32,000 bases of DNA from Phycisphaera mikurensis NBRC 102666 (GTDB lineage Bacteria > Planctomycetota > Phycisphaerae > Phycisphaerales > Phycisphaeraceae), in the NCBI RefSeq assembly GCF_000284115.1, contig NC_017080.1, positions 3,360,001 to 3,392,000 of the forward strand. Direction: 5' to 3'. A model generated the notes under the pieces. That model was not told where the DNA came from and searched no databases. It saw nothing but the letters and a program-made list of their open reading frames with translations. The position numbers were made by a program, and so were the translations under genes. Shown here piece after piece: positions 1,144 to 27,706 of this stretch (the stretch's first letter is position 1; each line of letters begins with the position of its first letter).

Positions 1144-1189
1144 CCGCGGACCGCCGGCGATTCGGCCCCCGAGCGGCCGCGGTCCGCGG
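1144..1189. repeat. 46-nt palindromic-ended element, copy A (intergenic, between convergent CDSs)
   Basis: CCGCGGACCG (1144-1153), a 26-nt spacer, then CGGTCCGCGG (1180-1189). The arms extend to 13 bp (GATCCGCGGACCG / CGGTCCGCGGATC, 1141-1192). It begins 6 nt after the stop at 1138 and may double as a bidirectional terminator hairpin. Confidence 0.85.
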
Positions 1190-1301
1190 ATCACCCGCCG
1201 GCGGCGCCGATCGACGTGGCCGGGGGTCGCGGGCGGCCACGGGGCGGGCGTCGCACCCGCAGCGTGATCCGCTCGCACGCCCGGTCCCCCGAGGGCCCGT
1301 G

Positions 1302-2366
1302 TCAGACCGCTCGCGGGTGGGCCTGGGCGTAGGCGGTCCGCATCCGCATGGTGGACAGGTGCGTGTAGACCTGGGTCGTCGACAGGGACTGGTGCCCGAG
1401 CAGCTCCTGCACGCTTCGGAGGTCGGCCCCGTTGTCGAGGAGGTGGGTGGCGAAGCTGTGCCGCAGGGTGTGCGGCGAGATGCCCGGGTCCATGCCGGCG
1501 CCGACGAGGTACTTGTCGAGCTTGCGGCGGACGCTGCGGCTGGACAGCCGGCCGCCGTTCTTGTTGATGAAGACCGGCACCGCGGCGGTGCGGTCGCTCT
1601 CCCGGCGGAGCTTGGCGAAGCGGGGGTCGGGCTCGAGCAGCGTCATGTAGTGGCGGATCGCGGCGAGGGCGTGGCTGCCCAGCGGCACGATCCGCTCCTT
1701 CTTGCCCTTGCCGCGGATGTGCATCGTCTGCTCCGCCATCGAGACGTCGCCGCGGTCCAGCTGCACGAGCTCGCTCACGCGGACGCCGGTGGAGTAAAGC
1801 GTCTCGAGGATCGCCCGGTCGCGGGCGCCCAGCGTCTCGCGGTTGTCGGGAGCCGCCAGCAGCGCCTCCACCTGCTCGACGTTGATGGCCTTGGGCAGCC
1901 GCTTCGCCTGCTTGGGGCTGCGGATGAGCAGCATCGGGTTGACCTGGTCGGGGTCGATGCCCGACAGCCACTTGTAGAAGCTCCGCAGCGTGGCGACCTT
2001 GCGGGCGGTCGTGGCGGGGCTGTAGCCGAACTGGTCGAGGTGGCCGAGCAGGCCGCGGATCGTCATCGCGTCGGCGCCGCGGAGCTTGTAGCCGAGGGTT
2101 TCCTCGTCGATCTCCTCCTCCAGCTGCGCGGCGAGCGGGCCGCCGGCGAGGTACTCCACGTACTGGCGGAGGTCGGCCCCGTAGCACCGGGCGGTGTACG
2201 GGCTGAAGTGGCGCTCGTGGGTGAGGTAGTCGAGGAAGCGCTGGACCAGCGGGTGGTTCACGCTGGGCTTCGCCGCTGCCGCCGCCCTTGCCCCCCCGGC
2301 GGCGGGCGTGGCGGGCGTGGCGGCCGGTCGGGCTTCGTCGGGGAGGGGCTTGGAGGCGGCGGGCAT
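1302..2366 (-). CDS. xerC: Tyrosine site-specific recombinase, XerC/XerD family
   Basis: 354 aa. The catalytic set is readable: R (TGVRVSEL), K (RGKGKKER), HxxR (HTLRHSFATHLL), H and Y (LLGHQSLSTTQVYTHL). N-terminal core-binding motif FLDYLTHERHFSPYTARCYGADLRQY is present. XerC and XerD cannot be separated by eye, so the symbol is tentative. Confidence 0.9.
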   Translation of the reverse strand: MPAASKPLPDEARPAATPATPAAGGARAAAAAKPSVNHPLVQRFLDYLTHERHFSPYTARCYGADLRQYVEYLAGGPLAAQLEEEIDEETLGYKLRGADAMTIRGLLGHLDQFGYSPATTARKVATLRSFYKWLSGIDPDQVNPMLLIRSPKQAKRLPKAINVEQVEALLAAPDNRETLGARDRAILETLYSTGVRVSELVQLDRGDVSMAEQTMHIRGKGKKERIVPLGSHALAAIRHYMTLLEPDPRFAKLRRESDRTAAVPVFINKNGGRLSSRSVRRKLDKYLVGAGMDPGISPHTLRHSFATHLLDNGADLRSVQELLGHQSLSTTQVYTHLSTMRMRTAYAQAHPRAV

Positions 2367-25013: not shown

Positions 25014-25189
25014 GATTGTTCTCGGGTGTAAAGCAGCCCGACCCCCGGGCTTGCGTTCCTGCATCGGCGCGGCGGCGGCTTGGCTTGTGCCCCGGGTTCG
25101 ACCCTTTGCGGCGGCGGCGCATCAGGAGATGCCTGAAGCTTCTGGGCGGGTTGCAGCGGTTGCCGGCCCGCGCCCCGTAGCGTCGGGCC

Positions 25190-27706
25190 ATGAGCGACGC
25201 CGCCCGCGGAGACACCCTGCTCGCGTACCTCGACACGCTGCCGCACGACCCGTACCCGGTGCAGGAGGCGGCGCTGCTGCGGTACTTCGAGGACGGGCCG
25301 GAGACCGGGGCCGCCCCGGGCGACGCGGGCGGGGTGCTGGTGACCGCGCCGACGGGCATGGGCAAGACGCTCATCGCCGAGGGGGCGCTGTACGAGGCGC
25401 TGGCGACCGGGCGGCGGGCGTACTACACGACGCCGCTGATCGCGCTGACCGACCAGAAGCACCGGGAGCTCGGCGACGCGGCGGAGCGTTGGGGCTTCTC
25501 CCGCGACCGCGTGGGGCTGGTGACCGGGAACCGCAGCGTCAATCCCGACGCCGACGTGCTGGTGGTCGTCGCGGAGGTGCTGTTCAACCGCCTGCTGCAC
25601 CGCGGCCGGGAGCGCGACCGCTGGGGCAACCCGATCGCGCTGCGCGACCGCCGCTTCGACGACGTCGCCGCCGTGGTGATGGACGAGTTCCACAGCTTCA
25701 ACGAGCCCCAGCGCGGCATCGTCTGGGAGCTGACGCTCTCGCTGCTGCCCCGACACGTGCGGCTGATGCTGCTGTCGGCGACGGTGGGCAACGCCGCGGC
25801 CTTCCTCGCCTGGTTGAAGAAAGAACACGGCCGCACGCTCGGGCTCGTGCAGGGCCACGAGCGCAAGGTCCCGCTGACCTACCACTGGGCGGGCGAGAAG
25901 CTGCTGCCCGAGCTGCTCGAGGCGATGTGCAGCGGCGAGGGCGACGAGCGCAGAGACCCGGCGCTGGTCTTCTGCTTCAACCGCGACCTGTGCTGGAGCA
26001 ACGCGGAGCTCCTGCGGGCCAGGGACCTGCTCGCGGACGGCCAGCGCGACCGCCTGCTGGCGCAGCTGGAGGCGCTCGACGAGGCGGAAACGTTCAAGGG
26101 CGGCGCCGGGCCCAAGCTCCGCCGCGTGCTCGCGCGCGGCATCGGCGTCCACCACGCCGGCTTGCTGCCCAAGCACAAGCGCGTCGTGGAGGCGCTGTTC
26201 CTGGAGCGCCTGCTGCCGGTGGTGGTCTGCACCGAGACGCTCGCCGCGGGGCTGAACCTGCCGGCCCGCAGCGTCGTGCTGCCCGAGCTGCTCAAGGGCC
26301 CCAGGGACAAGCGGCGGCTGCTGCCCGCCGCCGGAGCCCACCAGATGTTCGGCCGGGCCGGTCGGCCGCAGTTCGACCGCGAGGGCCACGTGTACGCGCT
26401 CGCGCACGAGGACGACGTCAAGATCGCCCGGTACCAGAAGCGGATTGACGAGATCCCCGAGGACACCAAAGACCCGGGGCTGATGAAAGCCCGCAAGAAG
26501 CTCGTGAAGAAGAAGCCCAAGCGGCGCGACGGCTTCGCCTACCACGAGGAGGCGCAGTTCACGAAGCTGCAGACGGCCCCGCCGGCCGACCTGGTCAGCA
26601 AGGGCGGCTTCCCCTGGCGGCTGCTCGCCTTCCTGCTCGACGCCGACTTCCGCGTGGCCCCGCTCCGCACGCAGGTGGACAAACGCCTCATGCCCGACGC
26701 CGACAAGCGGGCGGAGCAGGTGCGGCTGACGCGGATGCTCGTCGCCCTGCACGACCGCGCGTACGTCGACCTGATCCCGCCCCCGCCGGGGAGCGAGCCG
26801 CGGACCGCCGACGATTCCGACGGAGAACCGCCACGGTCCGCGGCGCCCGAGCTTGGATCCGAGCCGGAGCCCGAGCCGGAGGAGTCGACGCCCGCCCCGG
26901 GCGGCCTGCTCGCGGGGCTGAGCCTCGGCGGCGCCGCGACCGGCAGAGCGGCGGCCCCGCCGCCGTCCTCCGGCGGCGGCAAGGCTTCGGCCGCCGCGCC
27001 CAAAGTCGATGCGCTCGCCGGCTACGACCCGCAGGAGGCGGAACCCACCGACGGCCTCGCCGAGCTGCTGGCCTTCCGCGCCGTCCACCCGCTCTACGGC
27101 GGCTTCCTGCTGGATCACCTCGGGAAGCTCGAGAAGCACGAGCGGCTGCAGGCGATGGAGTCGGTGCTGGAGATGCCCGGCTCGGTCGCCAAGAAGGTCC
27201 GCGTGCCCTGGCCCGACGAGCTGCCGCCCGGGCCGCACACGCTCGGCGTCATCGACCCGAGCCTCGTCGCGGGCGGGACCTTCTCGCACGACGACCTGTA
27301 CCCCAAGCCCATCGAGGACCAGAAGGACGAGGGCGCCTCCGGCTCGAGCCTCCGCTTCCCCGTCCCGCTCGCCGACAAGCTCGCCGCGCTGTACCGCCAG
27401 GACGTGCGCTACGGCGGCGATCCGCCGACGACCGCCGTGTGGTGCGCCGGCCGCCTCATCGAGGACGGCGGCGACTTCTACACCTTCATCGCCAACACCG
27501 ACCTCGCGATGCAGGAGGGCATCGTCTTCAAGCACCTGCTGCGGCTGATCCTCCTGTGCGGCGAGCTCTCCGCGGTCACGCCGGTGGGCGTCGAGGAAGC
27601 CGACTGGAAGCAGGAGATGGAGCAGCTGGCCGACCTGCTCACCGGCATCGTCGTGGAGGTCGACCCGCAGTCGGCGGAGACGAGCGAAGGTGTCAGGTAC
27701 ATTTAG
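25190..27706 (+). CDS. Ski2-like DEAD/DEAH-box (DEFH) superfamily 2 helicase
   Basis: 838 aa. Motif I is APTGMGKT, motif II is VVMDEFH, motif III is LSATVGN. Further motifs are GIGVHHAGLLP, CTETLAAGLNLPARSVV and QMFGRAGRPQFD. A long low-complexity linker (residues about 520-610) precedes a C-terminal domain. Confidence 0.9.
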   Translation: MSDAARGDTLLAYLDTLPHDPYPVQEAALLRYFEDGPETGAAPGDAGGVLVTAPTGMGKTLIAEGALYEALATGRRAYYTTPLIALTDQKHRELGDAAERWGFSRDRVGLVTGNRSVNPDADVLVVVAEVLFNRLLHRGRERDRWGNPIALRDRRFDDVAAVVMDEFHSFNEPQRGIVWELTLSLLPRHVRLMLLSATVGNAAAFLAWLKKEHGRTLGLVQGHERKVPLTYHWAGEKLLPELLEAMCSGEGDERRDPALVFCFNRDLCWSNAELLRARDLLADGQRDRLLAQLEALDEAETFKGGAGPKLRRVLARGIGVHHAGLLPKHKRVVEALFLERLLPVVVCTETLAAGLNLPARSVVLPELLKGPRDKRRLLPAAGAHQMFGRAGRPQFDREGHVYALAHEDDVKIARYQKRIDEIPEDTKDPGLMKARKKLVKKKPKRRDGFAYHEEAQFTKLQTAPPADLVSKGGFPWRLLAFLLDADFRVAPLRTQVDKRLMPDADKRAEQVRLTRMLVALHDRAYVDLIPPPPGSEPRTADDSDGEPPRSAAPELGSEPEPEPEESTPAPGGLLAGLSLGGAATGRAAAPPPSSGGGKASAAAPKVDALAGYDPQEAEPTDGLAELLAFRAVHPLYGGFLLDHLGKLEKHERLQAMESVLEMPGSVAKKVRVPWPDELPPGPHTLGVIDPSLVAGGTFSHDDLYPKPIEDQKDEGASGSSLRFPVPLADKLAALYRQDVRYGGDPPTTAVWCAGRLIEDGGDFYTFIANTDLAMQEGIVFKHLLRLILLCGELSAVTPVGVEEADWKQEMEQLADLLTGIVVEVDPQSAETSEGVRYI
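26798..26843. repeat. 46-nt palindromic-ended element, copy G (inside the helicase linker region)
   Basis: CCGCGGACCG (26798-26807), a 26-nt spacer, then CGGTCCGCGG (26834-26843). It starts at codon position 1 and is translated PRTADDSDGEPPRSAA. The spacer begins CCGACGATTC, compared with CCGGCGATTC in copy A. Confidence 0.85.

Follow-up and report, generated by a model that had tools for sequence, protein, structure and literature searches.

A two-arm inverted motif of fixed geometry, dispersed in Phycisphaera mikurensis, as a candidate bipartite recognition site on duplex DNA

The 32,000-nt stretch of Phycisphaera mikurensis NBRC 102666 analyzed here (contig NC_017080.1, positions 3,360,001 to 3,392,000; hereafter the window) carries a family of short elements, each made up of two 10-nt inverted arms, CCGCGGACCG and CGGTCCGCGG, with 26 nt of spacer between them, and thus raises the question of what such a unit is and what keeps it in place both inside and outside of genes. 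An initial annotation of the window had proposed three natures for this family, namely a mobile hairpin akin to repetitive extragenic palindromic (REP) sequences or miniature inverted-repeat transposable elements (MITEs), an RNA structural module, and a dispersed protein-binding site; the protein-binding site fits the data best, the mobile hairpin is weakened, and the RNA module is the least supported of the three. The family is real, its geometry is fixed, its arms are kept while the spacer drifts, and it lacks covariation of the RNA type. The reading that we tentatively favor, with somewhat less than even confidence, is that it represents not inserted DNA but a recognition motif, iterated and bipartite, that is specific to the clade and would be read on duplex DNA by a candidate dimeric factor.

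A pattern search of the window with up to three mismatches returned exactly seven matches to CCGCGGACCG-N26-CGGTCCGCGG (Table 1), while dinucleotide shuffles of the same sequence gave a mean of 0.17 matches and a maximum of two. The seven copies first annotated, six with perfect arms and that at 10412-10457 with one mismatch, were hence borne out. Counting every inverted 8-mer pair separated by 0 to 60 nt recovered the two-arm family alone, and when gaps of 20 to 32 nt were scanned, matches with up to four mismatches exceeded background at N26 alone. The unit can thus be described as two 10-bp inverted cores that are 26 bp apart and 36 bp from center to center. A solitary perfect arm in the window (Table 1) is consistent with a chance occurrence.

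In order to extend these counts beyond the window, P. mikurensis was sampled over 72 kb, consisting of a 50-kb stretch (the contig of the window, extended on both sides) and the unlinked 21.8-kb dnaA region. This sample holds 14 copies with no more than two arm mismatches (9 perfect, 4 with one mismatch, and 1 with two), all of them N26, and corresponds to a density of about one copy per 5 kb. Twelve of the copies are located in the 50-kb stretch, nine of them perfect, two carrying one mismatch, and one carrying two; the dnaA region contributes two one-mismatch copies, its first 16 kb being free of any. Besides the one- and two-mismatch copies, possible relics with four mismatches were seen in the dnaA region and the flanks of the window. 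Exact arms occur 29 times in the 72 kb, as compared to 3.45 expected, with 24 of them inside N26 pairs and five solitary; because the solitary arms are at chance level (5 versus approximately 3.5 expected), the unit is the pair and not the word.

An artefact or a planted motif was ruled out by the presence of the same MurA protein in independent assemblies: the element-bearing MurA is identical residue for residue in P. mikurensis assembly GCA_014207395.1 (contig JACHEL010000009.1), and an independent read assembly is 100% identical. The family also extends to relatives, including one contig with 92% MurA identity (3 perfect copies in 14 kb), one with 85% helicase identity (6 copies in 22 kb), and approximately 30 copy-bearing contigs from one marine metagenome assembly. 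With the gap left free, every copy at five clade loci was N26 except for a single N27 copy, which coincides with a frameshift. This N27 copy lies in locus L185 (4941-6688 and 10001-11725), where dnaA is split into two open reading frames and the helicase gene is truncated right at the element, the spacer of which measures 27 nt. Indel errors in a long-read assembly are the most likely cause of these split and truncated reading frames, so that the N27 copy should not be weighed against fixed spacing. Algisphaera and another relative of about 70% identity contained neither copies nor single arms, a viral contig collection yielded no match to the two-arm motif and hence no link to phages, and the literature searched held no description of the arm sequence or of palindromic repeats in Phycisphaera. 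In unrelated high-GC genomes, chance word pairs occur singly and cover every gap between 14 and 40 nt, and only 3 of 121 were at gap 26 among the matches listed. A search for an analogous family in the sister genus Algisphaera found only a local, operator-like cluster of another palindrome; in A. agarilytica (L183 3792-4246), four copies of gcgcaacTGTGCCAT-N8-ATGGCACAgtt occupy one intergenic region upstream of an OEP efflux gene and look like operator sites rather than a dispersed family.

A dyad-symmetric half-site profile, obtained by pooling both halves of each copy and reading from outside to inside, is strongest at a core and grows fainter away from it; it shows A at position -2, never A at -1, and then the invariant 10-mer, followed by a pyrimidine at position 11 in 111 of 114 half-sites. 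Inward of this pyrimidine there is a weak GGCSG and then a T-rich patch at positions 17-19, so that the inner preference spans about nine bases, and the central 6-8 bp of the spacer carry no information. Sixteen chance hits in unrelated metagenomes served as an internal control; because they lack this extended profile outside of the 10-mers that defined the search, the family is confirmed as real. The sub-motifs first reported within the spacers (CCG[G/A]CGATTC, TGCCGTTTC, and CCGAAACCGCC) were correctly read from the sequence, and the claim that the spacers are related to one another holds insofar as a weak inner box (Y at position 11, then GGCSGTTTCGG) is present on one or both sides of some copies, but not for the other half-spacers, which are unrelated. 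Half-spacer likeness to the box TGGCSGTTTCGG is overdispersed, with an excess of both near-perfect and unrelated halves relative to independent positions, and the two halves of one copy are uncorrelated in this likeness. Complementarity between half-spacers amounts to 4.49 pairs within copies and 4.50 between copies, and since pairing within copies is no higher than between copies, the spacer is without hairpin-type covariation. The element ends in CCGC / GCGG with a flank consensus of A-N / N-T, and a GTAG or CGTC tetranucleotide tag is absent from its ends; the flanks show dyad symmetry instead of direct repetition, so that a target-site duplication is absent. The inner box was also used to orient copies relative to transcription, but this was dropped because most copies were ambiguous. 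One copy in the extended stretch (L123 6055-6107, equivalent to window positions 34400-34452) overlaps the stop codon of an S15 peptidase gene, and a 7-nt tandem repeat of its right arm comes after that arm (CGGTCCGCGGTCCGCGG), creating two overlapping N26 registers.

Comparison of orthologous sites allowed for a direct look at what is maintained. At three such sites, the arms showed 0 changes in 60 positions while the spacers showed 39 in 78; these counts come from murA (three species), the helicase gene (two species), and the region upstream of feoA (two species), and, with motif-losing lineages left out, they measure maintenance where the system is present. For reference, P. mikurensis differs from one relative at 29% of third positions. 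The perfect arms of the murA copy are kept in two orthologs and decayed in a third; overall, three lineages have a perfect site, whereas in P0003 decay has left 14 of 20 arm positions matching. A MurA tree nests the motif-free P0003 within the clade, which makes the murA site an ancestral one. The lineage without the murA site is represented by samples ERZ27264536 and ERZ23498712. In the P0003 MurA (L127 / L128), 8-9 additional residues (TKGPGTF) immediately precede the place once occupied by the element, across which the codons are lower in GC. At the helicase site, perfect arms are found in L186 and also in L185, an ortholog additional to the two in the count above, while the element has been lost in P0122 and partly lost in P0123.

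The copies within genes bear most directly on whether the element is inserted DNA. Seven of the 12 copies in the 50-kb stretch are wholly within coding sequences (CDSs), and the remaining five compare to 1.9 expected (P=0.03). In MurA, the loop that contains the element is as long as the corresponding loop in motif-free relatives, and the right arm encodes T-V-R-G, of which V306 and R307 are invariant across 15 Phycisphaerae. In several lineages the MurA loop seems liable to change driven by repeats; in Algisphaera murA (L183 10915-10960), it is encoded by an A/T-rich tandem repeat (ATCCGAAATCCGAAATCAAAAATCCGAAATC) in a genome of 64% GC. For the two-mismatch copy in a ROK kinase gene, 16 codons align without gaps to helix alpha-1 of ROK kinases with solved structures (PDB), and both mismatches fall where a perfect arm would require non-synonymous changes. 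The helicase copy sits in a linker whose length differs among outgroups, and a copy in the SIS-domain protein of L186 is located in a lineage-specific insert. Codon phases at 12 independent genic sites are distributed 6/6/0, and the unused phase would place the sole A and T of the arms at third codon positions in a genome with approximately 96% G+C at third positions (GC3). Proto-sites, defined as chance near-matches with 3-6 mismatches at N26 in coding DNA, have phases of 22/26/5 in CDSs; the phases of the real copies have P=0.32 under an in-situ model based on these proto-sites and P=0.008 under uniform in-frame insertion. Since arm plus spacer equals 36 nt, both arms are in the same codon phase, and this shared phase, which would arise by accident in one case out of three, may explain why the N26 geometry coexists with coding sequence. 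As far as these sequences can tell, the evidence says that the genic copies are probably not insertions, with the MurA and ROK copies adding no length; overprinting in situ and the phase data together therefore disfavor transposition as their source.

The option of a protein-binding site is favored by an arm sequence that is itself invariant, beyond what pairing would require, by the fixed spacing, by the dyad-symmetric profile, and by arms that are kept while spacers drift. From the invariant arms, fixed spacing, dyad symmetry, and free center, we infer a dimeric reader of two duplex half-sites. Under this proposal, a dimeric or dimer-of-dimers sequence-specific DNA-binding factor would read both cores at once, and sequence and spacing would be fixed and the middle free because one putative factor reads both. 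Copies would arise in place, in coding or noncoding DNA, where existing codon strings nearly match the arms; purifying selection or molecular drive would keep them near-perfect, and once maintenance ends in a lineage, they would decay. Two putative readers appear about equally plausible, namely a chromosome-level factor involved in architecture, topology, or segregation, and an uptake or self-recognition receptor of the type that reads uptake signal sequences (USS), DNA uptake sequences (DUS), or Chi. A bolder extension, which we regard as possible though doubtful, is that a bipartite "ruler" site recurring about every 5 kb, evolving in place and read as duplex by a putative dimeric protein, constitutes a new genome-wide recognition system. 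Such a system would be either chromosome-organizing or an uptake/self signal with an obligate two-arm geometry, and it would be without counterpart among REP, USS/DUS, highly iterated palindrome 1 (HIP1), Chi, and parS-type sites. It would also belong to bacteria that already stand out in their chromosome biology, since division without FtsZ is reported for the group of Phycisphaera. Iterated motifs such as Chi, the FtsK-orienting KOPS, USS/DUS, HIP1, and REP have each opened a piece of chromosome biology, and the sharp signature found here (20 invariant bases and a fixed 26-bp spacer across species) would make a reader directly fishable by DNA pull-down or DNA affinity purification sequencing (DAP-seq); because one related lineage has let its sites decay, phylogenetic profiling could also find it. 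The overprints in the murA, ROK kinase, and helicase genes further suggest that a DNA-level signal can strongly shape protein sequence at about 96% GC3, and, for annotation purposes, the family accounts for the recurrent PRT..RSA and ADR..VRG peptides in Phycisphaera proteins.

Several observations weigh against a maintained recognition motif. In the 50-kb stretch, a gene 3' end is found within 150 nt of seven of the 12 copies, as compared to 2.6 expected (P=0.005), which is a REP-like bias. Some half-spacers are near-perfect copies of the box TGGCSGTTTCGGC beyond what independent positions predict, and this looks like descent from a master rather than convergent evolution. Few intermediates exist, with no copies carrying 2-4 arm mismatches in the window, and the build-up of a 20-nt motif by point mutation at hundreds of loci needs a force that acts on partial sites. 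Copies in the 50-kb stretch are spaced more evenly than expected at random (coefficient of variation 0.34, P=0.0005), in a test that was picked after the data had been seen; this evenness may be local, since the dnaA region does not fit it, and density is not uniform because the dnaA region is copy-poor. The genome copy number of roughly 700-800 is itself an extrapolation from 72 kb. A synteny block of two relatives with about 91% DNA identity ends exactly at a shared copy upstream of feoA (L185 18613-18658 / L186 18204-18249), where the arms are identical and about 9 of 26 spacer bases match. Beyond this copy the DNA is unrelated, with PP_kinase in one relative and FUR in the other; the breakpoint, a single case, could reflect recombination between two different copies, and two-arm copies may mark rearrangement points. 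Finally, that a protein binds, and that duplex rather than hairpin is the form read, are steps we infer from the pattern of conservation.

Some of these observations would fit a palindromic mobile element of the REP/REPIN (paired-REP) or MITE type, an explanation that we consider unlikely. It holds that a master of about 46-50 nt, putatively (GAAT)CCGCGGACCG-TGGCGGTTTCGG..CCGAAACCGCCA-CGGTCCGCGG(ATTC), was copied by a cognate enzyme, e.g., a REP-associated tyrosine transposase (RAYT) of the HUH type, and that interiors then decayed while the arms persisted as the sole recognized part. Like REP sequences, the copies are short palindromic units (46 bp with a 10-bp perfect stem), dispersed in many copies, lineage-specific, and biased toward the 3' side of genes; like REPINs, they place a spacer of characteristic length and weaker conservation between two conserved inverted units. 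The flanks are as expected of HUH-type transposition, which does not duplicate its target site, and surveys have reported intragenic REPs in some species as well as REP dimers in which spacer length, but not sequence, is kept (PMC3733652). The family-wide inner box with half-spacers overdispersed toward master-like copies, the one synteny breakpoint at a copy, and the decay in a single lineage, which resembles the aftermath of losing a mobilizing enzyme, also point this way. On the other hand, when compared with homologs, the MurA and ROK copies bring no extra length and their arms overlie conserved residues, codon phases match in-situ proto-sites and not uniform insertion, and most copies are fully within CDSs, although REPs are mainly extragenic. 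The GTAG/CGTC tag of REPs is missing and the 10-nt arm cannot form a hairpin of its own, while the direct target-site duplication and added length that characterize MITEs are not seen. The lack of correlation in master-likeness between the halves of a copy provides no signal of young and old copies, and perfect arms at orthologous sites, retained over at least 14% protein divergence beside half-replaced spacers, are unexplained by copying alone. No transposase gene, of the Y1_Tnp type or otherwise, was present among the genes called in about 150 kb of clade DNA; where two metagenomic copies lie close together, a search of the DNA between them for a RAYT or any other gene found only a small membrane protein and an MreB/ParM-like neighbor.

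A more specific form of the recognition-motif reading, which we rate as improbable in its own right, would be a signal for DNA uptake or self-recognition that molecular drive has spread; a dimeric receptor would prefer motif-bearing fragments and recombination would enrich the motif in situ, as for USS in Pasteurellaceae and DUS in Neisseriaceae. USS and DUS are likewise iterated and clade-specific, arise in situ, lie for the most part in coding DNA where position and frame tolerate them, and are retained at orthologous sites. The motif studied here is confined to one clade and absent from the viral contig collection, appears to have arisen at permissive coding positions, and has approximately 60-70% of its copies in CDSs with a modest intergenic excess; perfect copies outnumber one-mismatch copies by about 2:1, and spacing is rather even, as for USS/DUS, in one 50-kb stretch but not in the dnaA region. 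Inverted DUS/USS pairs are also known downstream of genes in model systems. However, USS and DUS are single motifs of 9-12 nt that act alone at a density of about 1 per 1 kb, whereas here the single arm is not enriched, only the N26 inverted pair is, and density is about 1 per 5 kb; we know of no precedent among uptake sequences for an obligate bipartite signal of 46 bp. Evidence of natural competence in Phycisphaera is lacking as well, although no literature search was aimed at competence. An effect at the RNA level, with a G+C stem of 10 bp in transcripts terminating transcription or protecting mRNA 3' ends, is the least probable of the explanations considered and in our view very improbable. 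Predicted folds are stable (-21 to -38 kcal/mol) and gene 3' ends have an excess of copies within 150 nt, but the arm sequence never varies, so compensatory changes do not occur; the spacers do not covary, and a hairpin needs neither a fixed 26-nt loop nor a fixed stem sequence. In addition, no U-tract (T-run) follows the arms, copies are found deep in CDSs, at 5' ends, and in a divergent promoter region, and Rfam gave a tRNA alone in the window, with no match to the element.

Two further known systems help to place the family. HIP1 of cyanobacteria (GCGATCGC), the function of which is still debated, is also a palindromic word that is iterated genome-wide in and outside of genes and kept by a force other than transposition, but it is one 8-bp palindrome at about 1 per kb, whereas the motif described here is bipartite (10+10) with a strict 26-bp ruler and, in some copies, an asymmetric inner box. 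Rickettsia palindromic elements (RPEs) likewise are palindromic repeats that lie in frame inside genes for functional proteins; RPEs, however, are true insertions of 100-150 bp that add peptide, whereas the genic copies tested here neither replace nor add anything. By analogy, the behavior of the candidate recognition motif would resemble that of uptake sequences or HIP1 more than that of a transposon.

Table 1. Two-arm copies and other features in the window (positions are those of the window)
Feature	Position	Arms	Context	Codons and phase	Peptide or remark
Copy A	1144..1189	Perfect, N26	Intergenic, between convergent genes; 6 nt past the beta-helix gene stop and 113 nt from the XerC/D-type recombinase gene stop		Palindrome is 12+12 because AT flanks it on both sides
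Recombinase gene	1302..2366 (-)		XerC/XerD-type tyrosine recombinase; convergent with the beta-helix gene		
Copy B	7020..7065	Perfect	In GT2 glycosyltransferase gene (5451-7145, +), C-terminal tail	524-539 of 564; phase 1	PRTARANAGEAARSAG
Copy C	10412..10457	One mismatch in left arm (CCGCGGACGG)	In 241-aa gene (9781-10506, +)	211-226; phase 2	AADGLPFLLSGLAVRG
tRNA-Gln (anticodon CTG)	11412..11482 (+)		Between ribulose-phosphate 3-epimerase and LysM genes		
Copy D	12352..12397	Perfect	Intergenic, 16 nt past the LysM gene stop, upstream of radC		Left half-spacer resembles the putative master (TTGCCGTTTCCGC)
Solitary arm	15624..15633	Perfect CCGCGGACCG; 8 mismatches at N26 partner position	In Rce1-like gene		
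Copy E	17678..17723	Perfect	In murA (16801-18132, +)	293-308; phase 2	SADRELNDAETATVRG
Copy F	22133..22178	Perfect	Divergent intergenic region, ribD (-) / DUF748 gene; 17 nt upstream of the DUF748 gene ATG at 22196		
Copy G	26798..26843	Perfect	In DEAD/DEAH helicase gene (25190-27706, +), inter-domain linker	537-552; phase 1	PRTADDSDGEPPRSAA

Public gene calls and frame analysis agreed with the initial annotation in placing copies A, D, and F between genes and copies B, C, E, and G in CDSs. The tRNA-Gln gene was the sole Rfam or ARAGORN match within the window. In the dnaA region of P. mikurensis (L187 1-10000), GC skew flips sign just upstream of dnaA, which is consistent with this switch marking oriC, and the first 6 kb of L187, which contain a Fic gene and pilin-like N_methyl genes, have a GC content of 0.69-0.71 versus 0.76-0.81. 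The recombinase adjacent to copy A was considered as a cognate enzyme and rejected, as it is an ordinary XerC/XerD-type protein; its score falls just short of the curated equivalog cut-offs for XerC and XerD and passes that of NF001399, a model of a general tyrosine-recombinase subfamily. It is probably a housekeeping enzyme that neighbors copy A by coincidence, and because copies occur about every 5 kb, this adjacency means little.

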